Part shown: piece after piece, positions 40,100 through 64,000 of the stretch
Position numbering within the stretch: the first letter of the stretch is position 1
Layout of the letters: each line of letters starts with the position of its first letter
NCBI GenBank assembly: GCA_951406725.2
Contig: OX597835.1
Location: 14,136,001 to 14,200,000, forward strand
Direction of reading: 5' to 3'
Source: Octopus vulgaris
Lineage: Eukaryota
DNA length: 64,000 bases
Made by a program: the position numbers and the translations under genes
The notes under the pieces: generated by a model
What the model saw: the letters and a program-made list of their open reading frames with translations, nothing else
Databases searched by the model: none
What the model was told of the DNA's origin: nothing

Positions 40100-40482
40100 G
40101 CGTCCCGTACTGAAAGGAGGCAGAAATAGCCTGAAACCAGGCTGGTCTGCTGCTCCCATAGATAGAATGTTGTAGGGGTTCGCTTCCCTGCTCGCAATAT
40201 CTCGGATGCAGCCATGCATCGTTAACCAGCTAGAAGAGATGTTCTCTTGTGAATAAAAAAATCGCAGTAAAGTCCATTCGAACAGAACAGCCATGCTGAG
40301 TGGCTACGAACATAACTATATATATATAGATAGATATACACACACATATATACCTAAACACACAGGTACGAATTCTTGCATATTTATATGCGTGCGCACC
40401 TGTGCCAACATGTATATATGCGTATATATGCGTGTAGGTGTATGACAATTAGATTTAAGGAGATAATATGAAATATATATGT

Positions 40483-42316
40483 ATGTTTGGGATGTCCGAT
40501 GTAGCCTGACCCATGATGTTGGTCTTCTTGAGGCTGATAACTATGCCAAAGTTGCCAAATGCTTGCTCAAAACAGTTGCTGAGCCTTCGTAGGGCTTCTT
40601 CTGTGTGTGATACCAGAGCGGCATCATCAGCAAATAGCATCTCCTTGATCAGGATGCTTCTGAAATTTTGGTCTTGGCACGCAGACGCGAGAGATTGAAT
40701 AGTTCCCCATCACTTCTACTGTGCAGAAACACTCCATCATCTGATGTCTCAAAGGCATGTGACAGCAGCAGCGAGAAGAAGATGCCAAATAATGTAGGAG
40801 CAAGGACACAACCTTGCTCTACCCCATTTTTTATTTGGAAGGCGGCTGATGTTGAACCATTGTGCTGTATGGTGCCTTGCATATTAGCATGGAATGATTT
40901 GATGATCCTCAGCAGCTTTGGTGGACATCCGATTTTTGGAGCAGGATGAAGAGGCCTTTTCTACTTACCAAGTCAAAGCCCTTTGTCAGATCAATGAAGG
41001 CCATATATAATGGCATGTTCTGCTCTCTGGACTTCTGAAGTTGGCGTATGGAGAATATCATGTCAATAGTTGATCTGCTTCTAAAGCCACACTGCGATTC
41101 TGGATAAATTCGAGAAGCAATTAGTTGCAGCCTGGACAGGATAATGCAAGCAGAGGCCTTTCCAACTGTGCTTAGAAGAGATATTCCACGGTAATTGTTA
41201 CAATCATCACGGTCACTTTTATTTTTGTAAAGCGTAATGATGTTAGCATCCCGCATATTCTGAGGGACTGTACCCTCTTACCTGCACTGACACAGAAGCT
41301 CATGAATGTGCCGAAGCAGGATGGTGTTTTTGCCGGTTTTGATGATCTCTAAGGGGATGCCGTCTTTTCCCGGAGCCTTGTTACTTGCTAGGGAGTCAAT
41401 AGATTTAGTGAGCTCTGCTATAGATGGCAGACTGTCAAGTTCACACATGACTGGCAAGATCTTGACACCCTCGATTGCAGCCTCAGCTACCGTGGTCTCT
41501 CGTGAGTAGAGATCCTGGTAGTACTCCATCCATCTATCCATTTGCTTGCTTTGGTCCCTGATGAGATCTCCAGTAGTTGATTTCAGAGGGGCTGAGGTAT
41601 TTGCGGATGGACCGAGGGCCTTCTTCAAACCGGCATACATCCCACGGGTGTCGCCACTGTCAGCAGCTGACTGGATACTCTGACAGATTTCCTTTCAATA
41701 CCCATTTGCATAGCGTCTGGCAGTCAGTTGGGTTTTATTTCTTGCCTTTCTGAGTTCTTCGTGTGACTTTGTAGAAGAACCACTCTTGTATTGCATCAGA
41801 GCTGTACGCTTTGCTTCGATAACTGGTTCCAGCTCTGAGAGCCCAGCACTGAACAAAATCTGGGTTTACCTTTCTCTCATTCCGAAAGTATCTATTGATG
41901 TGGTATACAAAGCTTCCCTGATATAATTCCACCTACTTTCAGCAGAGGAGGTTGGGCAGCTACTGAGGGCAACCTTGATAAAAACAGCAAAACATTGTCG
42001 CAGTGTAGGGTTCGAGGTTCTGGCAGTGTTAATGCGTGGTTGGCTAATTTTCTTGGAGTGATGGACTTTTTAGGCAGAATCCTCACCCTTCTTATTAGTG
42101 AATGATCTGTCTCACAATCCGCGCTACGGGTCAGTTGAACAGAATTCAGAAAGGATCTTCGTGTAATGATGAGATCCAACTGATGCCAGTGGTGATATCT
42201 TGGATGTCTCCAAGATGCCTTGTGGGATGTCTTGTTGGGAAAGAATGTGTTGGTGATGCACAGGTTATGGTATGTGCAAAATTCAAGTAGTCTCTGGCTA
42301 TTGTCATTCATGTTGT
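40483..42316 (-). mobile_element. Decayed RTE-clade LINE fragment (APE C-terminus and RT)
   Basis: HQLDLIITR, KAPGKDGIP, NYRGISLLS, PESQCGFR, FIDLTKGFD, GVEQGCVLAPTLF, MLFADDAAL; several frameshifts. Confidence 0.9.
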
Positions 42317-42398
42317 CAATACTAAAACACATACACTTACATATATACATACATACATATATATACGATTGATTTGTTTCAGTTCCTGTCCACGAAAT

Positions 42399-42479
<81 letters not shown>

Positions 42480-42991
42480 GATAAATTGATAGATACAACT
42501 GAGTGGGCAAACAAAAATGTGAGACACTGCGTAGAGCTTTTTTAAATTTTGATAAGCCTGGTACTTATTCTATCAGTTTCTTCTTGTGAAACCAGTATGT
42601 TATGGGGATGTAAATAAACGAACACCAGTTGTGAAGCAGTGATGAGGGAGAAACACAAAGACACATACACAGACTTACATACATACATACATACATATAT
42701 ATACGATTGATTTCTTTCAGTTTCTGTCTACAAAATCCACTGACAAGGCTTTGGTTGGTCTCAGGCTATAGTAGAAGACACATGCCAAGTTACCACACAG
42801 TGGGACTGAACTGAGAACCATGCGTTTTGGAACCATAAGAATACTTATGCATAAATCTAAAATCTTAAATAATTTCTTTGTTATTGTAGTATATATCAGT
42901 AAAAAAATGGAATATTCCCAAAATTGCATGATTAACTAAATGATTTCCATTTCTTATTTAAACGTGGCAATCTGAAAAAATTGGGAACATC

Positions 42992-43016
42992 GATACTCAA
43001 AATTGAACTTTCACCA
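42992..43016 (+). other. Target/TSD motif; repeated at 48253-48268, 53516-53531 and 58791-58816
   Basis: Left GATACTCAAAATTGAACTTTCACCA; right GATACTCAAAAACTGAACTTTTACCA; both internal junctions GATACTCAAAAACTGA. Confidence 0.8.
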
Positions 43017-43210
43017 CGTGAGTCTTTTTGTCAGTGAAATATTGTTGTTGAATTTGAAAGTTAGTAGATTATTGTTGCTGTGTTAATATTGTTATTTTGG
43101 TGTCTTTTCAATAAGACGGTTAGTGGCCTTCGCGCGAAGGTTGTGTACGTAGTTCCCCCCCCCGCGGGGGAATTATTGTGTGCCTTCGTGTACGAAACAC
43201 ATTCAAAAAC

Positions 43211-43243
<33 letters not shown>

Positions 43244-43265
43244 TACTAACGGCTGCAAAGCCAGA

Positions 43266-44594
43266 ATGTCTTTGGAAGGCAGTGAATGCAAACTGGAAGG
43301 AAAATTCGAAATGGATTTCCCCATTACCTATTCACCTATCTCAGGTGATGAAGAATCTCAAACCTCGGGTGAGAGAAGCACGCCGGCGGTGACACCGGAA
43401 AAAGAATCGGCGGTAACGCCAGGAACAAAAGGCCCCAGCAAAGAAGTTTGCGGAAGTTGTTGGACGCAAACAGAAAAACATAGATATAGAAAACCTAGAG
43501 AAATATGAAGACCTTCTAAAGAAAGAAGGAAATGAAATTGCAGTGAAAAAAGATATGGAAAAAAAGGAAGAGATTGAAAAGAAAAGAATTATATACAAGA
43601 CATACAGCATGACTACAAAAAGCATACAAAAAGTGGAAGAATGTAAAATAGAGGAGTGCCTGAAGACAATCAGAAAAGATATCACTTATATAAACAGAGG
43701 AAGACGGTTCGGAACAGTAGAAGTGAGGTTCAGGACCGAAGAAATAGCTAAGAAGCTATCCACAGAACCTCAGAAAGCGGGAAATCTAGTCCTTCTACCC
43801 TTGTACAAAGGAAGAAGGACTTCAAAGATAGTAATGAGAAATATTCCCCCAGAGGCAGACGCCTCATGCCTGGTGGCGGCAGTGATGCTGGGCCTGAAAG
43901 AAAAATCAACATCCTCCAAGCTACAGTGGAGGAGGAGGGATTTTGGCAGGGCCAGATCATAACAATGGCTATACAAGCAGAGGCCCAGACTCTGGAAGAA
44001 ATACCAGAGGTGCTGAGGCTAGATGAGGAGGAGCGAGTTCTAGTATTTGTAGAAGGAAGAAAACCGAGGTGCTTCGGCTGCGGAAAGAAGGGGCACGTGA
44101 GAGCGGAGTGTCAACCTAAACCGCAGGTAGAAGCACCGTCGGAGAAAGAAGAAACGGAGGAAAAAAAGGAAACCAAAGAGGTGGAAAAAGCTGCAGAAAA
44201 GGAAAAAGAAAACGAAAAAGAGGAGGGGTGGTCTAAAGTTACCAAAAAAAAACGGAAAACTGAAACCACCCCTCAAGAAGAAGAAAACCTGAAGAAAAGG
44301 AAAGAGGTTACTTCTTCATTTATGGCCATTAAGGCTACTAACAACAGACTTGTCAATGTGTTGGCAGCCATGGCCAAGGTGGAACGTATAAGGAAGATGA
44401 AAGACTTCATCATATACAAAATAGGCCGGAAGGACTACAGGAGGATAAAATCCGAGTTCTTCCACGACGTGGGCCCTCTGAGACTGGACATGTCTCCATA
44501 TCTATACGAGGGCCTACGTCGGACTCCCCCACGAGCCAAAGAAAAAAATGAAGAAGAAGGCGAAACCGCCGAAAAAGCCAAACTACCGATATAA
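43266..44594 (+). CDS. ORF1 (gag-like, CFGCGKKGHVRAEC zinc knuckle), copy 1; frameshifts at A-runs
   Basis: ORFs 43080, 43543 and 43866 join into one protein by comparison with copies 2 and 3. Confidence 0.82.
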
Positions 44595-44602
44595 GGTAAG
44601 TG

Positions 44603-47600
44603 ATGAACTACATTTATGTTGGTTGTTTAAATGTGCGCGGCCTGGGATCAAGCGGGAAGCAAGGTCGCTTCCTTAATGATATCAGGTCGCGCAATTTGGA
44701 TGTTATTGTTGCTACAGAAACCCGGTTAAAGGGGCCAAGAGATCTACTCCCACTGTTTGACGGCTACGAGAGTTTTTTCTCTCCTGGCAGTCCTGCAGGC
44801 GGGAGTGGGGTGTTGGTCCTACTAAAAAGAAACCGGGTTTTTGAGAAAAAGTTAATTTTTTCAGACCCAGAAGGTAGGCTGGTCGTCATGGATTTGACGT
44901 TCAGTAACGGTAAAGTTATCAGACTGGTTGCAATTTACGCACCCTGCAGTAATAATGGGCAAAGTGATTATTATCGTGATCTAGAGAACTTTCTCGGTAC
45001 TTCGCATTCAATAGTTGTGCTAGGAGACTTTAACACAATTTGCAAAGCGGATGTAGATTGTGTTGGCTCGAATGATAGAAAAGGTAACTCAGGCTTCCTG
45101 GAACTGCTAAGCCGCTTTGAGCTAGCAGATCCTTATAGGTTGGAATTTCCGAACGCTCCATTGTGGACATGGTCAAACAGCGACGGATCTTCCAGGTCAT
45201 ACATAGATAGAATTCTAATTAGAAAGGTAGACAGTAAAATAGCTAAGCGTCCACAGTTTTACCCGATCAGCTACAGTGATCATAAAATGGTCACTTGTAA
45301 GCTTGACATAGATAAGGTTAGAAAGAGAGGATCCGGTTACTGGAAACTTAATACGTCCCTTTTGGCGATTAAGGAGTACAGAGACCGGATTAGGACCATA
45401 ATTCAGAGGGCGCTGTCTGGTGCCATCATTAATAACAAATGGTGGTACGCCCTCAAACGAGCCATCAAGTTTGAGTCTATTAGATATAGCATAGGAGTAG
45501 TGTCTAGAGAGGCTAGAAGGGAAACTACTCTAGTTAAGGAATTAGAGGAAGCCATGAAAACTGGCTCTGCGGCTCAGGTGGCGTCCAAGAGACTGGTGTT
45601 AAACCAGCACCTCGAGGCCAAACACATGGGCTGCATTGTCAGGGCTAGAATCCGTCATATGGGATGTGAAGGAATCAACGCCGTGAGATGGGCCCGAGTG
45701 GTGGAAGCCCGGAATGGCAACGATGCCACGATTCGATCTTTGAAGAACCAACAAGGTGAGTTGATAGACGAACCCGAGGAGATGTGTGAGGCCTTTCAGG
45801 AGCACTTCGCTCAGCTTTTCGGTGAGTGCGGCGGGCTGGATAGGAGGAGGGCCTTTACGGACCTACTCGACGGGCTGCCGCGCTTATCGGGGCGAGATGC
45901 GGAGGGCTGTGAAGGGCCAATCACGCCTGAGGAGGTGGTGGAGGCAATGGCGGACTGCGGCGCGGGCAAGGCGCCGGGTTTGGATGGTCTACCCTACGAG
46001 TTATATAAGAATATGCCAGACTTGTTCGGGCACCTACTGGCGGAAGTCTATGCGAACTGGCAGCAGAACGGGTTGATACCCAGATCTGTGCGCCGGGGAG
46101 TGGTGACTCTCGTCAGAAAGGACCCGAGCAAGGGGAGTGCATTGATAATTTCAGGCCCATCACTCTGCTAAACACAGAGTTGAAGATTTTGGCCAAAGTG
46201 TTATCGAAAAGATTGGCGCGTGTCGCGGATGGTCTGATCGGGGAGGCACAGACATGTGCCGTTCCGGGCAGAACCATTCAGGATAATCTCCATCTAATGC
46301 GGTACACTATAGAGGGGTTTAATAGTGATTCTGGCAAGGGTGGGGCACTGGTCCATTTAGACCAATCCAAAGCTTTTGATAGGGTCGACCATCGTTACCT
46401 GGTGTCTGCTCTGGCACAGTTCGGGCTGGGCCTTGGCTTCCTCAGGTGGATTATCCAAATTTACGACAACATCGACTCGGTAGTTCGGGTGAACGGCTTC
46501 TTGTCGAAGCCGTTCAAAATCAAACGCTCGGTTCGTCAAGGGTGTCCGCTCTCCCCGCTTTTGTACGTGATGGCTCTTGAGCCATTACTGCGAAAACTGA
46601 GCGGCATCCCGAGACAGCCAGGTAATGGAAAATCAGTGTCAGCGTACGCGGACGACATCACCATCATCGTGACCGAAATGGACCACCTATGTAAAGTAGG
46701 CAAGGCCATAGAGGATTACGAGACGGTGACAGGAGCAAAAGTTAATCGCGAAAAGTCAGTCGGCTTGCAACTCGGCACCTGGAGAGGCAAGTCGATGCCT
46801 CCTGACAGCGTCGTGGGACGTTGGACGGAGGGTCCGATTAAACTGCTAGGGGTCTGGTTCGGTCCAGACCTCCAAATAGAGAAGAATTGGGGCGAGGTAA
46901 CGAGCAAGGTGGCTGCAGTAGCCAAGACCTGGTCTTGGCGGTGGCTATCCTTGAAAGGGAGGGCGGAGGTGGCCAATGTGTTTATCGCATCGGTTATCAT
47001 CTACCGCCTTTCCGTCGTTCCATGCCCTGATTCGTGGTTGACCAAGTTGGAAAGACAGCTCTTCTACTTCCTGTGGAAGGGCAGGAAACCACTTGTGAAA
47101 CGCTCTACTTGCTGTCAACAACCGTTAAAGGGTGGGCTAGGGATGCCTTGGCTGATGATGCGCAGACATGCGCTGAGGTTAAGACATCTGTGGCTCTACC
47201 TGGATGGTGAACGGGTGTGGTCTCCGTTAGCAAAACTGATGTTTCCCAAGTTCACTAGTTTCGGTGGATGGGAAACCTGGTTGAATCGTAGATCGAAACT
47301 CGGTACATGGTATACGGAGTGTCGAAAGGCCCTCCTGCTATTCCGTCGCTCGGGCAACGCCTGCGGTGGGGGTTCCACCACATTCTTCTATAGAGGGTTG
47401 GTAGAGGCGGAATGTGAAGACACCTTGGGGGAAACCCTGGGTCTCGACGATAATCAGCTGGCTAGTCTGTTCCGACGTACGTTCGAGCCGAAGACTCTGG
47501 ACAACTTCCAGAAGTCTCTGGCATGGCAATGCTACAGAGGAGCTCTACCTGTTCGGGATAAACTCGCAAGGCACGGTGGCCAAGACAGTCCGATGTGTCC

Positions 47601-47997
47601 AAGATGCGGGCGGGATAGGGAAACCGTCCCGCACGCTATTGTTCATTGTTCGGACGTGTCTGAGGTGTGGGTTTATGCCGAACAGCTGTTGTCAAGCACA
47701 CGAAGAGTACAGCTGTCGACTGAGTGTATTAAAAAAATTGACCCACCAGATTTCCTCGCGAAAGAAGGTAAGAATTGTTTTCTCGTTGTGGTAGCAATTG
47801 CGAAGGAGGTGATATGGAAGACGAGAATGAAAGGTATACGGTCAGGCAAGTTCATATCCGGCCCTGGGTTGATGAATTACTTCATCTACCACCTGAAAAG
47901 GAAGATAGGGCTGGAGAGAAAATGCCTGACTAAAAGAGTGTATGAAGAACGATGGAAGGATGTAGCACGGAAGTTGAGAATGGATGACACCACATAA
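44603..47997 (+). CDS. ORF2 APE endonuclease-reverse transcriptase, copy 1 (one frameshift near 46135)
   Basis: NVRGL, IYAP, LGDFN, IDRIL, SDH; PGLDG, DQSKAFDRV, RQGCPLSP, YADD; C-terminal CPRC..ETVPHAIVHC. One G is missing from a G-run relative to copies 2 and 3. Confidence 0.92.
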
Positions 47998-48507
47998 ATG
48001 TAGATCAAAACGAAACCAAAAGTATCAGTGGTGAGGCGGGGCTCGTGGGGTCCGAGCTGAACCCGCCCCCACTCCACCTGTAGTGTCTTCCGGTCTGTTT
48101 TTTCTCATTCGATTTTTATAATTTTTGCAATTTTTGTGAATTTTTGGAATTTTTAAACTCATCCTTTTGTAACCCCATACGAGAATCTGACCCCACATCA
48201 GGTTGTATTGTCCCCTCTTTGTTGGCCCCTTGTGGGTAATAATAAAACAATCGATACTCAAAAACTGAGACGTGAGTTTTTTTTGTCAGTGAAATATTGT
48301 TGTTAAATTTGAAAGTTAGTAGTTTACTGTTGCTGTGTTAATATTGTTATTTTGTGTCTTTTCAATAAGACGGTTAGTGGCCTTCGCGCGAAGGTTGTGT
48401 ACGTAGTTCCCCCCCCCCGCGGGGGAACTATTGTGTGCCTTCGTGTACGAAACACATCCAAAAACAAAAAAAAAAAAATATTTTCTACTAACGGCTGCAA
48501 AGCCAGA

Positions 48508-49848
48508 ATGTCTTTGGAAGGCAGTAAATGTCAACTGGAAGAAAATTCGAAATGGATTTCCCCATTACCTATTCACCTATCTCAGGTGATGAAGAATCTC
48601 AAACCTCGGGTGAGAGAAGCACGCCGGCGGTGACACCGGAAAAAGAATCGGCGGTAACGCCAGGACAAAAGGCCCCAGCAAAGAAGTTTGCGGAAGTTGT
48701 TGGACGCAAACAGAAAAACATAGATATAGAAAACCTAGAGAAATATGAAGACCTTCTAAAGAAAGAAGGAAATGAAATTGCAGTGAAAAAAGATATGGAA
48801 AAAAAGGAAGAGATAGAAAAGAAAAGAATTATTTACAAGACATACAGCATGACTACAAAAAGCATACAAAAAGTGGAAGAATGTAAAATAGAGGAGTGCC
48901 TGAAGACAATCAGAAAAGATATCACTTATATAAACAGAGGAAGACGGTTCGGAACAGTAGAAGTGAGGTTCAGGACCGAAGAAATAGCTAAGAAGCTATC
49001 CACAGAACCTCAGAAAGCTGGAAACTAGTCCTTCTACCCTTGTACAAAGGAAGAAGGACTTCAAAGATAGTAATGAGAAATATTCCCCCAGAGGCAGACG
49101 CCTCATGCCTGGTGGCGGCAGTGATGCTGGGCCTGAAAGAAAAAATCAACATCCTCCAAGCTACAGTGGAGGAGGAGGGATTTTGGCAGGGCCAGATCAT
49201 AACAATGGCTATACAAGCAGAGGCCCAGACTCTGGAAGAAATACCAGAGGTGCTGAGGCTAGATGAGGAGGAGCGAGTTCTAGTATTTGTAGAAGGAAGA
49301 AAACCGAGGTGCTTCGGCTGCGGAAAGAAGGGGCACGTGAGAGCGGAGTGTCAACCTAAACCGCAGGTAGAAGCACCGTCGGAGAAAGAAGAAACGGAGG
49401 AAAAAAAAAACAGAGGAAACCAAAGAGGTGGAAAAAGCTGCAGAAAAGGAAAAAGAAAACGAAAAAGAGGAGGGGTGGTCTAAAGTTACCAAAAAAAAAA
49501 CGGAAAACTGAAACCACCCCTCAAGAAGAAGAAAACCTGAAGAAAAGGAAAGAGGTTACTTCTTCATTTATGGCCATTAAGGCTACTAACAACAGACTTG
49601 TCAATGTGTTGGCAGCCATGGCCAAGGTGGAACGAATAAGGAAGATGAAAGACTTCATCATATACAAAATAGGCCGGAAGGACTACAGGAGGATAAAATC
49701 CGAGTTCTTCCACGACGTGGGCCCTCTGAGACTGGACATGTCTCCATATCTATACGAGGGCCTACGTCGGACTCCCCCACGAGCCAAAGAAAAAAATAAA
49801 AGCGAAGAAGAAGGCGAAACCGCCGAACAAGCCAAACTACTGATATAA
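48508..49848 (+). CDS. ORF1, copy 2 (frameshifted)
   Basis: ORFs 48528, 49040 and 49570. Confidence 0.8.
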
Positions 49849-49856
49849 GGTAAGTG

Positions 49857-52800
49857 ATGGACTACATTTATGTTGGTTGTTTAAATGTGCGCGGCCTGGG
49901 ATCAAGCGGGAAGCAAGGTCGCTTCCTTAATGATATCAGGTCGCGCAATTTGGATGTTATTGTTGCTACAGAAACCCGGTTAAAGGGGCCAAGAGATCTA
50001 CTCCCACTGTTTGACGGCTACGAGAGTTTTGTCTCTCCGGCCAGTCCTGCAGGCGGGGGTGGGGTGTTGGTCCTACTAAAAAGAAACCGGGTTTTTGAGA
50101 AAAAGTTAATTTTTTCAGACCCAGAAGGTAGGCTGGTCGTCATGGATTTGACGTTCAGTAACGGTAAAGTTATCAGACTGGTTGCAATTTACGCACCCTG
50201 CAGTAATAATGGGCAAAGTGATTATTTTCGTGATCTAGAGAACTTTCTCGGTACTTCGCATTCAATAGTTGTACTAGGAGACTTTAACACAATTTGCAAA
50301 GCGGATGTAGATTGTGTTGGCTCGAATGATAGAAAAGGTAACTCAGGCTTCCTGGAACTGCTAAGCCGCTTTGAGCTAGCAGATCCTTATAGGTTGGAAT
50401 TTCCGAACGCTCCATTGTGGACATGGTCAAACAGCGACGGATCTTCCAGGTCATACATAGATAGAATTCTAATTAGAAAGGTAGACAGTAAAATAGCTAA
50501 GCGTCCACAGTTTCACCCGATCAGCTACAGTGATCATAAAATGGTCACTTGTAAGCTTGACATAGATAAGGTTAGAAATAGAGGATCCGGTTACTGGAAA
50601 CTTAATACGTCCCTTTTGGCGATTAAGGAGTACAGAGACCGGATTAGGACCATAATTCAGAGGGCGCTGTCTGGTGCCATCATTAATAACAAATGGTGGT
50701 ACGCCCTCAAACGAGCCATCAAGTTTGAGTCTATTAGATATAGCATAGGAGTAGTGTCTAGAGAGGCTAGAAGGGAAACTACTCTAGTTAAGGAATTAGA
50801 GGAAGCCATGAAAACTGGCTCTGCGGCTCAGGTGGCGTCCAAGAGACTGGTGTTAAACCAGCACCTCGAGGCCAAACACATGGGCTGCATTGTCAGGGCT
50901 AGAATCCGTCATATGGGATGTGAAGGAATCAACGCCGTGAGATGGGCCCGAGTGGTGGAAGCCCGGAATGGCAACGATGCCACAATTCGATCTTTGAAGA
51001 ACCAACAAGGTGAGTTGATAAACGAACCCGAGGAGATGTGTGAGGCCTTTCAGGAGCACTTCGCTCAGCTTTTCGGTGAGTGCGGCGGGCTGGATAGGAG
51101 GAGGGCCTTTACGGACCTACTCGACGGGCTGCCGCGCTTATCGGGGCGAGATGCGGAGGGCTGTGAAGGGCCAATCACGCCTGAGGAGGTGGTGGAGGCA
51201 ATGGCGGACTGCGGCGCGGGCAAGGCGCCGGGTTTGGATGGTCTACCCTACGAGTTATATAAGAATATGCCAGACTTGTTCGGGCACCTACTGGCGGAAG
51301 TCTATGCGAACTGGCAGCAGAACGGGTTGATACCCAGATCTGTGCGCCGGGGAGTGGTGACTCTCGTCAGAAAGGACCCGAGCAAGGGGGAGTGCATTGA
51401 TAATTTCAGGCCCATCACTCTGCTAAACACAGAGTTGAAGATTTTGGCCAAAGTGTTATCGAAAAGATTGGCGCGTGTCGCGGATGGTCTGATCGGGGAG
51501 GCACAGACATGTGCCGTTCCGGGCAGAACCATTCAGGATAATCTCCATCTAATGCGGTACACTATAGAGGGGTTTAATAGTGATTCTGGCAAGGGTGGGG
51601 CACTGGTCCATTTAGACCAATCCAAAGCTTTTGATAGGGTCGACCATCGTTACCTGGTGTCTGCTCTGGCACAGTTCGGGCTGGGCCTTGGCTTCCTCAG
51701 GTGGATTATCCAAATTTACGACAACATCGACTCGGTAGTTCGGGTGAACGGCTTCTTGTCAGAAGCCGTTCAAAATCAAACGCTCGGTTCGTCAAGGGTG
51801 TCCGCTCTCCCCGCTTTTGTACGTGATGGTTCTTGAGCCATTACTGCGAAAACTGAGCGGCATCCCGAGACAGCCAGGTAATGGAAAATCAGTGTCAGCG
51901 TACGCGGACGACATCACCATCATCGTGACCGAAATGGACCACCTATGTAAAGTAGGCAAGGCCATAGAGGATTACGAGACGGTGACAGGAGCAAAAGTTA
52001 ATCGCGAAAAGTCAGTCGGCTTGCAACTCGGCACCTGGAGAGGCAAGTCGATGCCTCCTGACAGCGTCGTGGGACGTTGGACGGAGGGTCCGATTAAACT
52101 GCTAGGGGTCTGGTTCGGTCCAGACCTCCAAATAGAGAAGAATTGGGGCGAGGTAACGAGCAAGGTGGCTGCAGTAGCCAAGACCTGGTGTCTTGGCGGT
52201 GGCTATCCTTGAAAGGGAGGGCGGAGGTGGCCAATGTGTTTATCGCATCGGTTATCACCTACCGCCTTTCCGTCGTTCCATGCCCTGATTCGTGGTTGAC
52301 CAAGTTGGAAAGACAGCTCTTCTACTTCCTGTGGAAGGGCGGGAAACCACTTGTGAAACGCTCTACTTGCTGTCAACAACCGTTAAAGGGTGGGCTAGGG
52401 ATGCCTTGGCTGTTGATGCGCAAACATGCGCTGAGGTTAAGACATCTGTGGCTCTACCTGGATGGTGAACGGGTGTGGTCTCCGCTAGCAGAACGGATGT
52501 TTCCCAAGTTCACTAGTTTCGGTGGATGGGAAACCTGGTTGAATCGTAGATCGAAACTGGGCACATGGTATACGGAGTGTCGCAAGGCTCTCCTGCTATT
52601 CCGTCGCTCGGGCAACGCCTGCGGTGGGGGTTCCACCACATTCTTCTATAGAGGGTTGGTAGAGGCGGAATGTGAAGACACCTTGGGGGAAACCCTGGGT
52701 CTCGACGATAATCAGCTGGCCAGTCTGTTCCGACGTACGTTCGAGCCGAAGACACTGGACAACTTCCAGAAGTCTCTGGCATGGCAATGCTACAGAGGAG

Positions 52801-53255
52801 CTCTACCTGTTCGGGATAAACTCGCAAGGCACGGTGGCCAAGACAGTCCGATGTGTCCAAGATGCGGGCGGGATAGGGAAACCGTCCCGCACGCTATTGT
52901 TCATTGTTCGGTCGTGTCTGAGGTGTGGGTTTATGCCGAACAGCTGTTGTCAAGCACACGAAGAGTACAGCTGTCGACTGAGTGTATTAAAAAAATTGAC
53001 CCACCAGATTTCCTCGCGAAAGAAGGTAAGAATTGTTTTCTCGTTGTGGTAGCAATTGCGAAAGAGGTGATATGGAAGACGAGAATGAAAGGTATACGGT
53101 CAGGCAAGTTCATATCCGGCCCTGGGTTGATGAATTACTTCATCTACCACCTGAAAAGGAAGATAGGGCTGGAGAGAAAATGCCTGACTAAAAGAGTGTA
53201 TGAAGAACGATGGAAGGATGTAGCACGGAAGTTGAGAATGAATGACACCACATAA
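49857..53255 (+). CDS. ORF2 APE-RT, copy 2 (frameshifts near 51760 and 52190)
   Basis: ORFs 49854, 51817 and 52143. Confidence 0.9.
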
Positions 53256-53779
53256 ATGTAAATCAGAACGAAACCAAAAGTATCAGTGGTGAGGCGGGGC
53301 TCGTGGGGTCCGAGCTGAACCCGCCCCCACTCCACCTGTAATGTCTTCCGGTCTGTTTTTTCATTCGATTTTAATATTTTTGCATTTTTGTGAAATTTTG
53401 AATTTTTAATCTCATCCTTTTTGTAACCTCATCCGAGAATCTGACCCCACATCAGGTTGTATTGTCCCCTCTTTGTCTGCCCCTTGTGGGTAATAATAAA
53501 ATAAAACAAAAAATAGATACTCAAAAACTGAGACGTGAGTTTTTTGTCAGTGAAATATTGTTGTTGAATTTGAAAGTTAGTAGATTACTGTTGCTGTGTT
53601 AATTTAAAACACTGTTGTTTTGTGTCTTTTCAATAAGACGATTAGTGGCCTTCGCGCGAAGGTTGTGTACGTAGTTCCCCCCCCGCGGGGGAATTATTGT
53701 GTGCCTTCGTGTACGAAACACATCCAAAAACAAAAAAAAAAAAAAAAAAAATTTTTCTACAAACGGCTGCAAAGCCAGA

Positions 53780-55138
53780 ATGTCTTTGGAAGGCAGTGAA
53801 TGCCAACTGGAAGAAAAATTCGAAATGGAATTCCCCATTTCCTATTCACGTATCTCAGGTGATGAAGAATCTCAAGCCTCGGGTGAGAGAAGCTCGCCGG
53901 CGGTGACACCGGAAAAAGAATCGGCGGTAACGCCAGGACAAAAGGCCCCAGCAAAGAAGTTTGCGGAAGTTGTTGGACGCAAACAGAAAAATATAGATAT
54001 AGAAAACCTGGATAAATATGAAGACCTTCTGAAGAAAGAAGGAAATGAAATTGCAGTGAAAAAAGATGTGGAAAAAAAAGGAAGAGATTGAAAAGAAAAG
54101 AATAATTTACAAGACATACAGCATGACTACAAAAAGTATACAAAAAGTGGAAGAGTGTAAAATAGAGGAGTGCCTGAAGGCAATTAGGAAGGACATCACA
54201 TATATAAACAGAGGAAGACGGTTCGGAACGGTAGAAGTGAGGTTCAGGACCGAAGAAATAGCAAAGAGGCTATCCACAGAACCTCAGAAAGCGGGAAATA
54301 TAGTCCTTCTACCCTTGTACAGAGGAAGAAGGACTTCAAAGATAGTGATGAGGAATATTCCCCCAGAGGCGGACGCCTCATGCCTGGTGGCGGCAGTGAT
54401 GCTGGGCCTGAAAGAAAAAATCAACATCCTCCAAGCTACAGTGGAGGAGGAGGGATTTTGGCAGGGCCAGATTATCACAATGGCAATACAAGCAGGCCCA
54501 GACACTGGAGGAAATACCAGAGGTGCTGAGGCTCGATGAGGAGGAGAGAGTATTGGTATTTGTAGAAGGAAGAAAACCGAGGTGCTTCGGCTGCGGAAAA
54601 AAGGGACACGTAAGAGCGGAGTGTCAACCTAAACCGCAGGTAGAAGCACCGTCGGAAAAAGAAGAAGCGGAGAAGAAAAAAGAAAACAGAGGAAACCAAA
54701 GAGGTGGAAAAATCTGCAAGTGGTGCAGAAAAGGAAAAAGAAAACGAAAAAGAGGAGGGGTGGTCTAAAGTTACCCCAAAAAAAAAAACGGAAAACTGAA
54801 ACCACCCCTCAAGAAGAAGAAAACCTGAAGAAAAGGAAAGAGGTTACTTCTTCATTTATGGCCATTAAGGCTACCAACAACAGACTTGTCAATGTGTTGG
54901 CAGCCATTGCCAAGGTGGAACGAATAAGAAAAATGAAAGACTTTATCATATACAAAATAGGCCGGAAGGACTACAGGAGGATAAAATCCGAATTCTTCCA
55001 CGACGTGGGCCCTCTGAGACTGGACATGTCTCCATATCTATACGAGGGCCTGCGTCGGACTCCCCCACGAGCCAAAGGAAAAAAATAAAAGAAGAAGAAC
55101 AAGGCGAAACTGCCGAACAAGCCAAACTACTGATATAA
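53780..55138 (+). CDS. ORF1, copy 3 (frameshifted)
   Basis: ORFs 53699, 54066, 54523 and 54720. Confidence 0.8.
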
Positions 55139-55146
55139 GGTAAGTG

Positions 55147-58100
55147 ATGGACTACATTTATGTTGGTTGTTTAAATGTGCGCGGCCTGGGATCAAGCGGG
55201 AAGCAAGGTCGCTTCCTTAATGATATCAGGTCGCGCAATTTGGATGTTATTGTTGCTACAGAAACCCGGTTAAAGGGGCCAAGAGATCTACTCCCACTGT
55301 TTGACGGCTACGAGAGTTTTGTCTCTCCGGCCAGTCCTACAGGCGGGAGTGGGGTGTTGGTCCTACTAAAAAGAAACCGGGTTTTTGAGAAAAAGTTAAT
55401 TTTTTCAGACCCAGAAGGTAGGCTGGTCGTCATGGATTTGACGTTCAGTAACGGTAAAGTTATCAGACTGGTTGCAATTTACGCACCCAACAGTAATAAA
55501 AGGACAAAGTGATTATTTTCGTGATCTAGAAAACTTTCTCGGTACTTCGCATTCATTAGTTGTGCTAGGAGACTTTAACACAATTTGCAAAGCGGATGTA
55601 GATTGTGTTGGCTCGAATGATAGAAAAGGTAACTCAGGCTTCCTGGAACTGCTAAGCCGCTTTGAGCTAGCAGATCCTTATAGGTTGGAATTTCCGAACG
55701 CTCCATTGTGGACATGGTCAAACAGCGACGGATCTTCCAGGTCATACATAGATAGAATTCTAATTAGAAAGGTAGACAGTAAAATAGCTAAGTGTCCACA
55801 GTTTCACCCGATCAGCTACAGTGATCATAAAATGGTCACTTGTAAGCTTGACATAGATAAGGTTAGAAATAGAGGATCCGGTTACTGGAAACTTAATACG
55901 TCCCTTTTGGCGATTAAGGAGTACAGAGACCGGATTAGGACCATAATTCAGAGGGCGCTGTCTGGTGCCATCATTAATAACAAATGGTGGTACGCCCTCA
56001 AACGAGCCATCAAGTTTGAGTCTATTAGATATAGCATAGGAGTAGTGTCTAGAGAGGCTAGAAGGGAAACTACTCTAGTTAAGGAATTAGAGGAAGCCAT
56101 GAAAACTGGCTCTGCGGCTCAGGTGGCGTCCAAGAGACTGGTGTTAAACCAGCACCTCGAGGCCAAACACATGGGCTGCATTGTCAGGGCTAGAATCCGT
56201 CATATGGGATGTGAAGGAATCAACGCCGTGAGATGGGCCCGAGTGGTGGAAGCCCGGAATGGCAACGATGCCACGATTCGATCTTTGAAGAACCAACAAG
56301 GTGAGTTGATAAACGAACCCGAGGAGATGTGTGAGGCCTTTCAGGAGCACTTCGCTCAGCTTTTCGGTGAGTGCGGCGGGCTGGATAGGAGGAGGGCCTT
56401 TACGGACCTACTCGACGGGCTGCCGCGCTTATCGGGGCGAGATGCGGAGGGCTGTGAAGGGCCAATCACGCCTGAGGAGGTGGTGGAGGCAATGGCGGAC
56501 TGCGGCGCGGGCAAGGCGCCGGGTTTGGATGGTCTACCCTACGAGTTATATAAGAGTATGCCAGACTTGTTCGGGCACCTACTGGCGGAGGTCTATGCGA
56601 ACTGGCAGCAGAACGGGCTTATACCCAGATCTGTGCGCCGGGGAGTGGTGACTCTCGTCAGAAAGGACCCGAGCAAGGGGGAGTGCATTGATAATTTCAG
56701 GCCCATCACTCTGCTAAACACAGAGTTGAAGATTTTGGCCAAAGTGTTATCGAAAAGATTGGCGCGTGTCGCGGATGGTCTGATCGGGGAGGCACAGACA
56801 TGTGCCGTTCCGGGCAGAACCATTCAGGATAATCTCCATCTAATGCGGTACACTATAGAGGGGTTTAATAGTGATTCTGGCAAGGGTGGGGCACTGGTCC
56901 ATTTAGACCAATCCAAAGCTTTTGATAGGGTCGACCATCGTTACCTGGTGTCTGCCCTGGCACAGTTCGGGCTGGGCCTTGGCTTCCTCAGGTGGATTAT
57001 CCAAATTTACGACAACATCGACTCGGTAGTTCGGGTGAACGGCTTCTTGTCGAAGCCGTTCAAAATCAAACGCTCGGTTCGTCAAGGGTGTCCGCTCTCC
57101 CCGCTTTTGTACGTGATGGCTCTTGAGCCATTACTGCGAAAACTGAGCGGCATCCCGAGACAGCCAGGTAATGGAAAATCAGTGTCAGCGTACGCGGACG
57201 ACATCACCATCATCGTGACCGAAATGGACCACCTATGTAAAGTAGGCAAGGCCATAGAGGATTACGAGACGGTGACAGGAGCAAAAGTTAATCGCGAAAA
57301 GTCAGTCGGCTTGCAACTCGGCACCTGGAGAGGCAAGTCGATGCCTCCTGACAGCGTCGTGGGACGTTGGACGGAGGGTCCGATTAAACTGCTAGGGGTC
57401 TGGTTCGGTCCAGACCTCCAAATAGAGAAGAATTGGGGCGAGGTAACGAGCAAGGTGGCTGCAGTAGCCAAGACCTGGTCTTGGCGGTGGCTATCCATGA
57501 AAGGGAGGGCGGAGGTGGCCAATGTGTTTATCGCATCGGTTATCACCTACCGCCTTTCCGTCGTTCCATGCCCTGATTCGTGGTTGACCAAGTTGGAAAG
57601 ACAGCTCTTCTACTTCCTGTGGAAGGGCGGGAAACCACTTGTGAAACGCTCTACTTGCTGTCAACAACCGTTAAAGGGTGGGCTAGGGATGCCTTGGCTG
57701 GTGATGCGCAAACATGCGCTGAGGTTAAGACATCTGTGGCTCTACCTGGATGGTGAACGGGTGTGGTCTTCGTTAGCAAAACGGATGTTTCCCAAGTTCA
57801 CTAGTTTCGGTGGATGGGAAACCTGGTTGAATCGTAGATCGAAAATGGGCACATGGTATACGGAGTGTCGCAAGGCTCTCCTGCTATTCCGTCGCTCGGG
57901 CAACGCCTGCGGTGGGGGTTCCACCACATTCTTCTATAGAGGGTTGGTAGAGGCGAATGTGAAGACACCTTGGGGGAAACCCTGGGTCTCGACGATAATC
58001 AGCTGGCCAGTCTGTTCCGACGTACGTTCGAGCCGAAGACACTGGATAACTTCCAGAAGTCTCTGGCATGGCAATGCTACAGAGGAGCTCTACCTGTTCG

Positions 58101-58542
58101 GGATAAACTCGCAAGGCACGGTGGCCAAGACAGTCCGATGTGTCCAAGATGCGGGCGGGATAGGGAAACCGTCCCGCACGCTATTGTTCATTGTTCGGTC
58201 GTGTCTGAGGTGTGGGTTTATGCCGAACAGCTGTTGTCAAGCACACGAAGAGTACAGCTGTCGACTGAGTGTATTAAAAAAATTGACCCACCAGATTTCC
58301 TCGCGAAAGAAGGTAAGAATTGTTTTCTCGTTGTGGTAGCAATTGCGAAAGAGGTGATATGGAAGACGAGAATGAAAGGTATACGGTCAGGCAAGTTCAT
58401 ATCCGGTCCTGGGTTGATGAATTACTTCATCTACCACCTGAAAAGGAAGATAGGGCTGGAGAGAAAATGCCTGACTAAAAGAGTGTATGAAGAACGATGG
58501 AAGGATGTAGCACGGAAGTTGAGAATGAATGACACCACATAA
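55147..58542 (+). CDS. ORF2 APE-RT, copy 3 (frameshifts near 55500 and 57955)
   Basis: ORFs 55144, 55472 (955 aa) and 57970. Confidence 0.9.
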
Positions 58543-59012
58543 ATGTAAATCAGAACGAAACCAAAAGTATCAGTGGTGAGGCGGGGCTCGTGGGGTCCGA
58601 GCTGAACCCGCCCCCACTCCACCTGTAATGTCTTCCGGTCTGTCTTTTTCATTCGATTTATAACTTTTTCATTTTTGTGAATTTTTGGAATTTTTAAACT
58701 CATCCTTTTGTAACCCCATCCGAGAATCTGACCCCACATCAGGTTGTATTGTCCCCTCTTTGTTGGCCCCTTGTGGGTAATAATAAAACAGATACTCAAA
58801 AACTGAACTTTTACCAACTGAATACTCGTCATGTAGTGCCTTACTGCTTTCTGCTGGATTTTACCTCGAGAAAGGAACCCTGAGGAAGGAGGGCTGAATT
58901 TCGAATACCTCGTACAACAAACGGCTGCAGGTTAGGAAAAAAAATTTAATCGCCTCTTTCAATTCAGGTTTTCATTTTTCATGTTTTTATTTGTATTTCA
59001 TTGTTATGTTTA

Positions 59013-59499
59013 TATTGGGTTGTCCGGAAAGTTCGTTCCGATTTTTAAAGGAAAGTACATGGTCACTAAATACTCTTCCCAGAATTGGGGTGGTTTCAAG
59101 GCAAATAATTCATCAAGGTATCTTTTTACGTCATCTAAGGAATTGAAATTTTCACCATTAAGACTATTCTGCAGAGACCTGAATAAGTGGAAATCCGAAG
59201 GAGTAATATCTGGTGAATATGGAGGGTGGGGTAAGTCACCCCAGCCAAGCTGCAGCAATTTTTGTCTGGTTCCCAAAGCATCAAATGCCGATAATGAATT
59301 TTTCTCATCTTTTAATTTAAAGGTTTACAGAATTAACACAGGTTATTGGAACATAAACCTTCTTCCACGAAAAGATAGATTAAACTGTGCTCCAAATGGA
59401 GGTGTAGTCAAATCCTATTTTATGGACTCAAACATGTTCTAAAATAAGTCGAAAGATAAGCTACTATAAATCTGCAAGAACTTTCCGGACAACCCAATA
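59013..59499 (-). mobile_element. Internally deleted mariner (~490 bp)
   Basis: Perfect TIRs tattgggttgtccggaaagttc / gaactttccggacaacccaata; remnant HPPYSPDITPSDFHLF. Confidence 0.88.
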
Positions 59500-59897
59500 T
59501 TTCTATATTTTTATCATGAAATTCTTAATATAAATATGTGGATATTCGTATGGAAAATAATACCTCATGTGCTACATCTGAATTTTCTTGTCTGAATGTT
59601 TTAAGACAAATATCCGAAATTTTTATCGTATACCACATTTTATTAATACTTAGCTCATATACGGAGACAAAAATGTTGTACTATATACTGCAGGTTATCT
59701 CCATTAAAATTATATTTAGCATTAGAATTCTTCAAGTAGTATAAAAATGGTTATTGTCTGCATCATTCGAAAGCGAAATAAATTTTGCATAAGGTGTAAA
59801 AGTTAAATAATAATTTGTATGGTGTTAGTAACAAAATATTTTGTAAGAAATAGAACTTTTATCGTCTGTCTTAAATATATTTTCGCCAGTGTATATA

Positions 59898-62435
59898 TCT
59901 CAGGTCATCCCATAAGTTCTGTCTGAATTTTGGATAAAGAATACAAGTGATCAAATGTTATATTTAATTGAAAGTTAATCATCAATGTACTTTCCCTAAT
60001 TATCTATGACTTACCTCCATCTATTTACAAGCTTTTTAATCCCATCAACGTAAAACTCTTTTGGTTTGAAAGCGAAGAACTCTGAAATGTCAGGTTCGAC
60101 CTCCCCCTGGCTTGCGAAAGTTGTATCCCCCTACTAATTCTGTAAACTATGAAACAAATGGTATCCTGAAGGAGTAAGGTCGGGAGAATAAGTTGGATGA
60201 AGAAATTTTTCCAAACCGACCCCTTCGATCTTCTGTGATGTGATCTTTGCAGTGTGGGGTTGCGCATTGTCCTGTTGAAACATCACTCGTTTTCGACTCC
60301 CTAAAGCGGCTCTTTTTTCCTTCAAAGCTTGGTTCAAACGCTCTAATTGCTGACAGTAGACTTGAGCATTGATTGTTGCATTAGGTGGTAACAATATAAA
60401 GTGAATTACGCCTTTGCAATCGCACCAGATAGAGAGTAGAACCTTTTTCCCATGAAGTTCCCTTCTCGGTTGTGGTTGAGAATTTTCCCTTTTACCAAGC
60501 CACTGTTTATGACGTCTAACGTTTCGATAGAAAATCCATTTTTCATCACAAGTCTATCGAAAAAGGGTGAAATGAGTTTGCGAGAATGGAGAGAAGAGCA
60601 GATACCAACTCGGGATTTGCGGTTGCTTTCGGACAATACATAAGGCACCTATTTTCCAAGTTTAGGAACCTTTCCACGTTGTTGATGACGATGAACTGTT
60701 GTATGGTTTGAAGTAAGCTTTATTGTCAATTCTTCAACTGATAATGACGGATTTTCTTCAAGTAATGCCTCAAGGAGCTTGTCAAACTCAACTGGACATC
60801 CTGTTCGATATTCATCTTCAATTTTGCAGACGATCTCCTGCAAGTTCTTTCATTCGAGCACTTTGCTATAAACTGAGTGTATGTTTCGAGTCACTTCGGC
60901 ATCAGAGTTCCCTTTATTGTACTCATAAAGAATTATATGTGCCTTAAATGCTCCTTGGATACTTCCATGTTGAAAGGGTTTTAATCAGAGCAATTTTAGG
61001 GTGTCCACGAAGTCTGGGTTTATGGAATAAAATCATAACATAAGAAATAATAATTTTCCTTTTTTACTTTTGTTTAAATTAAATAAAAAAAATACTTTAC
61101 TTTTCTAAATTTATTTGTTATTTTTTCTACAGATGATCGAATGATGGCTCTGTCTAAAGAAGAAAGAATCCCAGATCGAATGATGAATCTGTCTAAAGAA
61201 GAAAGAATCGAGTTAGTATTATTAAGTGGACGAGAGGGATGGTCTTATTGCGGAAGAATTTAATCTTCCACACCCTTGTAGGCAACCTATTTATTTTACT
61301 GCCGTCAGGAAATTGATCAAGAAATTTAAAGAAACAGGCAGTGTTTCGGATAAACCCCGTTCCGGGCGACCAAAGACTTCAGATGAAACTAAAGAGGCTG
61401 TCGAGGCTAAAGTTTCTGCTAGCTAGCCCCCCAAATCACTTCGTCGGACATCTACGGTGTTAGGTGTTCCAAAACCAACCATCCACAAAATGCTGGTTGA
61501 GGAAAAGTTTCATCGATACAACCTACAGATATTGCATCACTTAAATTAAGACGATCCTGATAGACGAATAAATTGGATGAAAATATCAATTTTACGAAAA
61601 ACTTTGTGTTGTTCAGTGACAAAGCTACGTTTTATGTAAATGGTAAGGTCAACAGACAGAATCTTCTATACTGGTCTCGAGGTAATCCACATTGGATGGA
61701 TCTATCCAAACAGCAAGACAGCAAAAAGGTGATGGTGTGGTGTGGTTTTTGGAAAGCTCATGTTCTAGGACCCTTCTTCATTGAACATGTAACGGATGAG
61801 ACTTATGCAAATATATTGAGAGACAAATTAATATCTTAAATTGAGCGCCTAGGCGAGGACCTTCCAAATTGGTTTCAGCAGGATGAGGCCCCTACCCATT
61901 TTGCCACAACTGTTAGAGATTGATTTAATGACACTTTTCCTCCTCACTAGATTGGAAGAAGGGGTCATATGGAATGGTCCCCTCGTTCACCAGACCTTTC
62001 TCCCCTTGATTTCTTTTTCTGGGGTATGTTGAAAGAGAAAGTTTACTCAATAAAGATTACAGATTTAAAACACACGAGAGAACGCATTACCAGTCAGTGT
62101 GCTTAAATTGATGGCAATATAGACTTATTTAATCAAGTTCACCTGAATTTTGCAAAGCGCATCAAGTTATGCATTGAAAATGATGGAAATCACTTTGAAA
62201 ATATTATTTATTATAATTAAATAAAATTGTTTTGTTTTAAAAGTATGTGTTAATTCCCATGTACGCAGACTTTGTGGACACCGTCTATTTTGTAAAACAA
62301 TACTGAATTAGTTTAAACGTATACAAATGCATAAAAATAATTTTTAATTGAATTAGACATTTGCAAATACTATTAAATTTCATTCAACTCTAAAAAGCAG
62401 GTAAAATTGGACAGAACTGACTGGATGACTTGATA
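59898..62435 (-). mobile_element. Decayed mariner interrupted by a DD41D element
   Basis: TIRs tcaggtcatcccataagttctgtc and gacagaactgactggatgacttga; transposase remnant 59975-60968 (MEVSKEHLRHI..., QQDNAQPH, YSPDLTPSGYHLF). Confidence 0.8.
60997..62287 (+). mobile_element. Tc1/mariner DD41D (rosa/Visitor-type) element, decayed
   Basis: TIRs ggtgtccacgaagtctg / cagactttgtggacacc; FSDKATF; 41 residues counted between QQD and the D of WSPRSPDLSPLD; in-frame stops. Confidence 0.85.
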
Positions 62436-63115
62436 TATATAATCTATGATATTCTAGTAAGTTTCAAGTTTATAACACCTTGATATCTCATTTTATATGC
62501 CTAAGACGTTTATTTTCTATTCTGGTTTTTATATATTTCTATACGTTATATTTGTATCTATAATTTATTTTAAGCCGAAACATAATACGATCCTTGTACG
62601 AACGAAAGAACAAGAATGCCCTCTGGAACGTTTATCTTCCACCGGCGTTTGTAATCGATGGTGACATGTGCGATGATTTTGCGACTATCTTATATTTTAC
62701 AGAGAAATTGGAAGCCCCGAATGTAAGTCAGCGCTTTATGCATAATTCAATATTCATAGTTCTCTATTTCTAACAGAAATTCTGTCCTCAATAACTATAG
62801 ATCTATTTCTAAATGTATTTCTTTTTCTTTTCCTTCATGCACTCCCGTCTGCCTCTTGACAAAGCTTTCTTTCTCCAGCGTTCACCACGTCATCTCGTTA
62901 GAGTTAACCAGCCCTTAGCGAAAATTTTGACTGTCCTGATTTTGTTAGCAGCTTTGACGTTCCACGTATCTCAAATTTTATCTAATTTGGTTTGGGGGAG
63001 CAATTGCTTTGAGAAGACACATCTAGTTGCAATGCGGAGCAAGTAAAATTGCCAACATCTGAGGAAGAGTTGTTTGTTTTTTTTTATATTCTGCCTTCAC
63101 GCTATAGTTCTCTAT

Positions 63116-64000
63116 GAACCGAACCGAACCGAACCGAACCGAACCGAACCGAACCGAACCGAACCGAACCGAACCGAACCGAACCGAACCGAACCGAACC
63201 GAACCGAACCGAACCGAACCGAACCGAACCGAACCGAACCGAACCGAACCGAACCGAACCGAACCGAACCGAACCGAACCGAACCGAACCGAACCGAACC
63301 GAACCGAACCGAACCGAACCGAACCGAACCGAACCGAACCGAACCGAACCGAACCGAACCGAACCGAACCGAACCGAACCGAACCGAACCGAACCGAACC
63401 GAACCGAACCGAACCGAACCGAACCGAACCGAACCGAACCGAACCGAACCGAACCGAACCGAACCGAACCGAACCGAACCGAACCGAACCGAACCGAACC
63501 GAACCGAACCGAACCGAACCGAACCGAACCGAACCGAACCGAACCGAACCGAACCGAACCGAACCGAACCGAACCGAACCGAACCGAACCGAACCGAACC
63601 GAACCGAACCGAACCGAACCGAACCGAACCGAACCGAACCGAACCGAACCGAACCGAACCGAACCGAACCGAACCGAACCGAACCGAACCGAACCGAACC
63701 GAACCGAACCGAACCGAACCGAACCGAACCGAACCGAACCGAACCGAACCGAACCGAACCGAACCGAACCGAACCGAACCGAACCGAACCGAACCGAACC
63801 GAACCGAACCGAACCGAACCGAACCGAACCGAACCGAACCGAACCGAACCGAACCGAACCGAACCGAACCGAACCGAACCGAACCGAACCGAACCGAACC
63901 GAACCGAACCGAACCGAACCGAACCGAACCGAACCGAACCGAACCGAACCGAACCGAACCGAACCGAACCGAACCGAACCGAACCGAACCGAACCGAACC
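63116..64000. repeat. Perfect (GAACC)n pentamer array, 177 units, reaching the window edge
   Basis: Direct reading; no variant unit seen. Confidence 0.98.

Follow-up and report, generated by a model that had tools for sequence, protein, structure and literature searches.

A stretch of 64,000 nucleotides from Octopus vulgaris (assembly GCA_951406725.2, contig OX597835.1, positions 14,136,001 to 14,200,000 of the forward strand; referred to as the window, with its first letter as position 1) was analysed for an array of long interspersed nuclear elements (LINEs); other places in the genome are given by working labels for contigs (C) and loci (L). Three stacked, head-to-tail elements, each with two open reading frames (ORF1 and ORF2) and with one short motif at the four borders, had been proposed from the letters alone (the original prediction), and a triple array of head-to-tail LINEs of the L1/Tx1 group was confirmed. 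The 11-nt motif was found without mismatch at 42992, 48253, 53516 and 58791, which are the element borders (a scan of the window with one mismatch allowed has a chance expectation of 2.4 matches), and alignment of the three units gave pairwise identities of 97.65–98.8% over ~5.24 kb. The array is best read as the product of three successive insertions into the hot zone of a dispersed, Helitron-associated repeat.

The left junction (42989..43016, plus strand) consists of a ~14–16 nt duplication running into an inherited, target-like leader. Copy 1 (43017..48249, plus strand; ORF1 from 43266, ORF2 at 44603–47997, both frameshifted) is likely the youngest; it is followed by a spacer of 3 target bases and a 16-nt motif copy (48250..48268, plus strand), by copy 2 (48269..53515, plus strand; ORF2 at 49857–53255 with two frameshifts), by a second spacer consisting of a 16-nt motif copy (53516..53531, plus strand) and by copy 3 (53532..58790, plus strand; ORF2 at 55147–58542 with two frameshifts), likely the oldest. 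Each unit had its own indels and its own tail (three different tails), with 63–123 differing aligned positions and a divergence of 1.2–2.4%. Endonuclease, reverse transcriptase (RT) and zf-RVT domains were identified by Pfam across the ORF2 pieces of all three copies, which supports the Tx1-clade assignment of the original prediction at the level of the L1/Tx1 group. None of the copies is intact in the assembly, however, and both ORF1 and ORF2 are frameshifted in all three relative to an intact natural copy 30 kb away; because the frameshifts fall partly at homopolymers, base errors are possible. The statement that each A-rich tail directly abuts the motif failed for copy 1, whose tail stops 3 bases short (48250–48252). 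Motif lengths had been given as ~25 nt outside and 16 nt inside; the 16-nt copies between the elements were recovered, but the outer two 25-nt copies differ from each other, and a leader is the better reading of the left one. Another array lies 30 kb downstream of the window in a different host copy (C22:14.224–14.249 Mb; L063, L064, L129, L196); its four members are near-identical, and an intact ORF2 was present in two of the copies read.

The ORF2 of the intact natural copy encodes 1128 aa with an N-terminal APE endonuclease, an RT and a C-terminal zinc-binding region (Pfam), and a separate ORF1, an A-rich 3' tail and target-site duplications were present, all of which are features of the L1/Tx1 group. 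The best solved-structure match of ORF2 was human L1 ORF2p (E 3e-71); for the RT region, the score was 228 bits (37%) with the protein entry Transposon TX1 149 kDa and 100 bits with human L1, and the nearest named RT was that of Argonauta (64%). Tx1 membership is favoured by score, the comparison being one of scores rather than of a tree. A CCHC zinc knuckle in ORF1 is a feature of the Tx1 clade, and one CCHC motif was visible in ORF1 (Pfam zf-CCHC E 0.19, below the cut-off). Subfamilies with different sites were 94–98% alike in RT and 67–75% in ORF1, and three endonuclease loops (residues ~15–18, ~116–120 and ~153–160) varied between subfamilies with different target sites; because ORF1 and the loops differ while the RT is alike, either tethering or nick preference could vary between subfamilies. 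The available part of a repeat annotation of Octopus vulgaris reports 13 recently active L1-Tx1 families, and its supplements may name the window family (PMC13282606).

Shorter elements sharing the tail were found in the genome (2.8 Gb in 227 contigs), where the tail pattern had 3669 matches. The 3' tail of this Tx1 group is carried by an abundant repeat resembling a short interspersed nuclear element (SINE; window 29345–29837, L062, L075, L117, L198, L219), two copies of which bear the tail variant of the window family with 18–19-bp duplications; this repeat and the Tx1 group are likely a SINE–LINE pair. Elements of 1.78 kb that share this tail occur in tandem and occupy the same hot spots (C1:64.25, 115.86 and 118.75 Mb; C3:85.75 Mb; L201, L202, L206); they lack ORF2-length sequence and are probably non-autonomous partners. 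Minimal insertions with only 20–40 bases of the element tail were also present (L228, L229, L020, L049, L278), some with full 16–17-bp duplications and some with target deletions.

Both flanks of the array were multi-copy (40 matches scored for each, out of 172 and 105 candidates) and belong to a dispersed repeat of mosaic structure, more than 10 kb long (the host). Its copies are 93–99.6% alike and contain remnants of old transposons, AT-rich satellites and a microsatellite slot that varies. The left arm (40477..42991) contains an old LINE remnant, a microsatellite, a SINE-like piece and a promoter-like segment and was 95–99.6% identical to copies on C3, C13, C22, C24, C26, C27 and C30. To the right of the array the remaining part of the hot zone (58791..58850, plus strand) is followed by the right arm (58851..63115), with a ~480-bp inverted-repeat element near 59016–59500 and old transposon remnants (96–99% identical in other copies), and by a 5-bp microsatellite (63116..64000) in a slot that is filled by other simple repeats in other copies. 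This microsatellite measured 2.2 kb (window 63116–64000 plus L061:1–1305); in other host copies the slot holds different simple repeats, with a 70-bp minisatellite after them. On the minus strand, 1.3 kb beyond the window end, lies part of a non-autonomous Helitron, and free copies of the small Helitron at the host right end had the TC start, hairpin-terminator end and A/T insertion site of Helitrons, with the 3' hairpin at 7 loci. No Helitron-type terminator for the whole host unit was seen in three older host copies, and the left end of the unit was not found within 10 kb in several copies; because of this missing left end the host is designated putative Helitron cargo.

The target zone spans ~70 bp. 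It had been said to be no recognisable RNA gene or microsatellite, and this was borne out: there was no credible Rfam match (RNA gene, snoRNA, microRNA) and no tandem repeat at the target, by which RNA genes, microRNAs, snoRNAs and microsatellites, including the RNA-gene and microsatellite targets of Tx1 families, were ruled out. A decayed type-I hammerhead-like motif (58876..58933, plus strand), not called by Rfam, lies ~90 bases downstream of the 11-nt motif in older host copies, which keep the hammerhead core, stem I and a 7-bp stem II without the stem-III closing pair (1 of 5000 shuffles); in the window allele 11 further bases of it are gone. The target segment failed as a retrozyme or Penelope-type repeat, with the stem-III pair missing and no tandem unit seen. 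The silence of Rfam on hammerheads means little, because the intact hammerhead of a second target was missed as well. This second target, a 480-bp tandem and inverted hammerhead repeat (L131–L160; 1235 candidates in the genome), has an intact type-I hammerhead in its tandem unit, as is required of a retrozyme, and fits the retrozyme description in the available part of PMC7229834; no Penelope ORF was found near it in 30 loci of 3.2 kb. Two more Tx1 hot spots, ~320 bp apart and used by sister subfamilies 88% and 92–93% alike overall, were located in the small non-autonomous Helitron (L221–L227, L235, L288). Proximity to a hammerhead was rejected as a general targeting rule, as 2 of 4 hot spots lie upstream of such a motif and the two Helitron sites do not.

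For analysis of specificity, a pattern from the 3' untranslated region was used, which gave 55 3' ends at 29 loci, and flanks were read for all 29. Thirteen loci (37 of the 55 ends) were in the hot zone, 4 in the 480-bp tandem repeat with the intact hammerhead, 3 were chains outside the host with a copy inside another copy's leader, 1 was in a chain at a Helitron site and 8 were in unrelated DNA, mostly 5'-truncated. Although it accounts for only about 1e-5 of the genome, the hot zone contains 13 of the 29 loci; only 12 of the 55 ends abut the motif itself. The family is target-preferring, with a strong preference but no strict site specificity: nearly all copies at one base, as in R1, R2 or Keno, were not observed at these loci and ends, and more than 20% of flanks were in one repeat type, the measure of a target-preferring Tx1 family in the available part of PMC4494074, with loci that are not all independent. 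Each of two array types was present at two loci (C27:32.95 Mb and C58 for one, C10:43.62 Mb and C15:65.74 Mb for the other), and because of such recurrence the 13 zone loci represent at least 5 and fewer than 13 independent events. With the tail of the wider family, the commonest flank among the first 100 of 336 matches was another site, in the Helitron itself. At C10:43.62–43.64 Mb (L115, L126, L128, L237, L241) two opposite arrays meet inside truncated copies, which suggests an inversion between arrays.

Filled and empty zones were compared in a sample of 69 obtained by an exact pattern (a lower bound), of which 30 were filled with Tx1-type inserts (29 by script, 1 by eye), 36 were empty and 3 were unclear. 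The end of the window family was directly at the zone in 7 filled zones, and the remainder held other Tx1 lineages or shorter partners, the lineages sharing the zone being 70–99% alike. In a tree of host flanks (45 sites, short branches) 7 filled sites fell in 5 places, one of them sister to an empty allele, and junction alleles matched different empty haplotypes. Comparison of these sites showed that the zone was hit independently by several Tx1 lineages, usually with 16–18-bp duplications. The site-specific family of the original prediction was retained as repeated independent insertion at one target and lost its strictness through the loci in unrelated DNA and in the second repeat, and the zone was not the target of one family. 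Its further proposal that each duplication regenerates the target for reinsertion at the same site agrees with the 16-nt duplications between copies but not with the small share of 3' ends at the motif. An element terminus containing the motif, together with a lack of empty sites, had been named as the contrary outcome; the first half applies, because the motif also belongs to the inherited 5' end of the element, and the second does not, as empty targets exist.

In clear single insertions, duplications were 13–25 bp, mostly 16–18 bp (the duplication script returned none or spurious ones at several loci, including C24:29.91 Mb and 3 of the 4 hammerhead-repeat loci). The motif or a variant stood directly upstream in 33 of 34 pattern matches for the 5' end, often closing a longer leader, the exception being an 81–88% relative. 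As read from these junctions, the motif plays two parts, as a 16-bp duplication and as a 5' leader that is inherited. The 5' ends of full-length copies hold earlier duplications in nested chains, with three nesting levels; at C27:31.87, C30:13.36 and C10:43.64 Mb the outer 16 bases of a leader level are the duplication at those loci, and in the arrays at C27:32.95 Mb and C58 one further block stands in front of the leader. In a sister subfamily, a motif-like leader has been carried to the hammerhead repeat and to a SINE-like site; the window family was inserted in that subfamily's leader at 3 loci outside the host (with a perfect 16-bp duplication at C15:65.74 Mb). The left-junction leader with the body start recurs at C18:35.69 Mb in an 81–87% relative (the leader-plus-body junction pattern had 4 matches, 3 of them unrelated, and the window's own site was not among them). 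The left 25-nt motif copy and the preceding 20 bases show several differences from the matching empty allele (L007). A 25-bp duplication at the left end was ruled out by the mismatches to the local allele and by the same junction at C18:35.69 Mb, and this motif copy is better read as a probable leader than as a local duplication. For the nested leaders, the simplest explanation would be an RNA whose start lies upstream of the element.

A TATA-like box of the host (42955..42962, plus strand; putative function) lies 34 bases before the copy 1 duplication and 37 before the motif. A decayed octamer-like site (42922..42929, minus strand) has one mismatch in the window allele, where it is 14 nt closer; it is intact in older host copies, where the octamer stands 46 nt before the TATA box (L026, compared with the U6 loci L296, L298 and L303–L307). 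Octamer spacing was 46–48 nt in 7 of 20 U6 loci viewed, and the other 13 look like promoterless copies. The host spacing resembles that of the U6 loci and would fit a U6-type promoter (octamer plus TATA box), from which transcription would begin ~30 bases after the TATA box. At C1:139.42 Mb (L303–L307), a tandem cluster of five variant U6 genes has both an octamer and a TATA box upstream.

The distance from the TATA box to the start of the duplication of the leftmost copy was 35, 39, 41, 42, 42, 43, 59, 64 and 82 bases for the window family and 29–30, 30, 39, 39–40, 42, 42, 50, 67 and 69 bases for other lineages; several were counted by eye, and zones without a left arm in the fetched DNA or with a deleted duplication were left out. 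Among the 18 filled zones whose left arm is intact, the duplication thus began 35–43 bases after the box in 10, and about six different sequences were seen at its start. A hand estimate for a uniform 70-bp zone was ~2e-5, with the 35–43 range chosen after looking and with sites that are not all independent. At C22:14.224 Mb the TATA box is mutated and a new box stands 21 nt downstream; the duplication lies 59 bases from the old box and 38 from the new one. A TATA-like box also precedes two further hot spots of the family group. In the 480-bp hammerhead repeat, Tx1 3' junctions were seen 30, 41 and 52 bases after a TATA-like box, that is, 11 bases apart.

These observations are consistent with promoter-linked targeting with inherited leaders, a reading given about an even chance of being right. 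The family would likely pick the zone because it lies just behind a TATA-box promoter, which likely also transcribes the inserted copy. The endonuclease would nick ~35–43 bases after the TATA box, with fine placement governed by a loose preference for sequence and by pairing between the RNA read-through tail and the nicked strand. Because read-through from the host promoter would start upstream of the element, each generation would add its duplication to the leader; new copies would enter at the promoter end and displace older ones away from it, and some arrays would later be multiplied by host duplication and unequal crossover. In the RT tree copy 3 of the window splits off before copies 1 and 2, which fits such growth at the promoter end. 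A wider formulation is put forward only tentatively: an animal LINE radiation may find its targets through the TATA-box promoters of other mobile elements, borrow these promoters and add to its 5' end a 16-base record of each past landing site; this record would serve as a portable target from which arrays can start anywhere, and the leader chain as a genealogy of transposition.

Several results weigh against promoter-linked targeting. The duplication starts at 50–82 bases in 6 of the 18 filled zones and at 29–30 in 2, and distance and sequence are confounded, as a similar short context is common to 8 of the 10 sites in the preferred range. Of 8 unrelated duplication sites, only 2 had a TATA-like box at a fitting distance, with 8% as background (one of these two motifs was included post hoc), and a TATA box is absent from one of the sister hot spots in the Helitron. 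That the motif alone can be chosen is seen from the insertions into leaders and from the inner copies of the window. In young host alleles, including that of the window, the octamer is mutated, reversed relative to U6 and closer by the distance given above. The sole putatively RNA-derived contig over such a junction begins upstream of the TATA box, and support in the RT tree for the order of copies 1 and 2 is weak.

Part of this evidence would be accounted for by classical sequence targeting, a possible though clearly less probable explanation that is near the original prediction with looser specificity: the endonuclease of each subfamily, with tail–target pairing, would recognise a short sequence, the duplication would regenerate the target and the TATA box would be a bystander. 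Most duplications after a plain tail begin with the same few bases, including those at unrelated sites and in the two SINE copies, copies enter at the motif inside leaders far from the host, and R1 arrays form likewise (available part of PMC2718515). Endonuclease loop variants also track the subfamily sites while the RT hardly changes, a correlation that is not independent because kin share loop and tail. This explanation is opposed by the one family that begins its duplication at several different sequences in the zone, by a near-identical endonuclease at both the window zone and another Helitron site (L201 versus L221–L224) and by the shifted site at C22:14.224 Mb, which follows the new TATA box.

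Hitchhiking, in which few chance insertions are multiplied by host-repeat duplication and unequal crossover and so mimic targeting, is unlikely and as a sole cause largely refuted already: the host is a young, mosaic, multi-copy unit, arrays of 4–8 copies at 99.3–99.8% identity with identical spacers exist and two array types each recur at two loci, but on the host tree filled sites are interspersed with empty ones, the zone is entered at different bases by different Tx1 lineages and partner elements, and the three window copies differ in sequence and tails to the extent given above. A mis-assembled single copy is very improbable, for although contigs placed on the left junction and on the empty site do not span the array and homopolymer frameshifts suggest some base errors, the copies differ at many aligned positions with distinct indels and tails, arrays of 2–8 copies occur at many loci and a contig from another sample joins the host left arm to the element 5' end.

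The family offers a test bed for LINE target choice and switching, with near-identical RTs, swapped ORF1, endonuclease loops, tails and leaders at four hot spots in one genome, in which filled and empty alleles coexist. If the promoter rule is true, positional targeting of the TRE5 kind would occur in an animal Tx1 lineage, and nested leaders would be a built-in record of insertion order; if it fails, the family would be one more transposon-targeting Tx1 family, with a Helitron-borne host. For cephalopods, the literature search found no description of Helitrons, hammerhead repeats or TATA-proximal sites as Tx1 targets, a search on HeT-A 5' tags gave no match, and the terms Tx1 and octopus were absent from the available part of a preprint on animal retrozymes (10.64898/2026.07.22.740005).

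Known systems were compared on the basis of the accessible parts of the cited papers. Transposon-targeting Tx1 elements are already known, and the unusual feature of this family is the inherited leader. Crocodilian Tx1-Mar, Tx1-9_AMi and SINEU, and Xenopus Tx1L in Tx1D comprise transposon-targeting Tx1 elements, SINE partners and tandem inserts, and share with the present family a graded preference for a site in a non-autonomous transposon, tandem inserts around the duplication and a SINE sharing the machinery, with transcription from the flank suggested there; they differ in that their hosts are Mariner, piggyBac or Harbinger elements rather than putative Helitron-associated cargo, and here several lineages share a 70-bp zone, with nested target-derived leaders and a candidate TATA-distance rule, neither of which the accessible part describes (PMC4494074). 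R1 of Drosophila is likewise an APE-type LINE, in which duplication-spaced arrays arise when new elements insert at the 5' copy, 5' junctions bear additional upstream target sequence and off-target copies occur; it uses one fixed base of 28S rDNA, whereas here the start sequence varies and the leader grows over generations and is itself hit outside the host (PMC2718515). Template RNA of the Drosophila telomere element HeT-A, which also forms head-to-tail arrays, starts upstream of the element and carries extra 5' sequence, but its promoter is the 3' end of a neighbour and it inserts at chromosome ends, whereas the putative promoter here belongs to the host repeat (PMC1636488). Position is set relative to a promoter in Dictyostelium TRE5-A and yeast Ty3, as may be the case here, and TRE5-A, an element of the APE-RT type, has an ORF1 protein that binds TFIIIB (PMC5911963); in the octopus elements it is ORF1 that varies most between subfamilies (67–75%, versus 94–98% for RT). 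TRE5-A inserts ~50 bp upstream of tRNA genes in opposite orientation (PMC5911963), whereas the octopus family, known from sequence alone, is found downstream of a TATA-like box in the same orientation.

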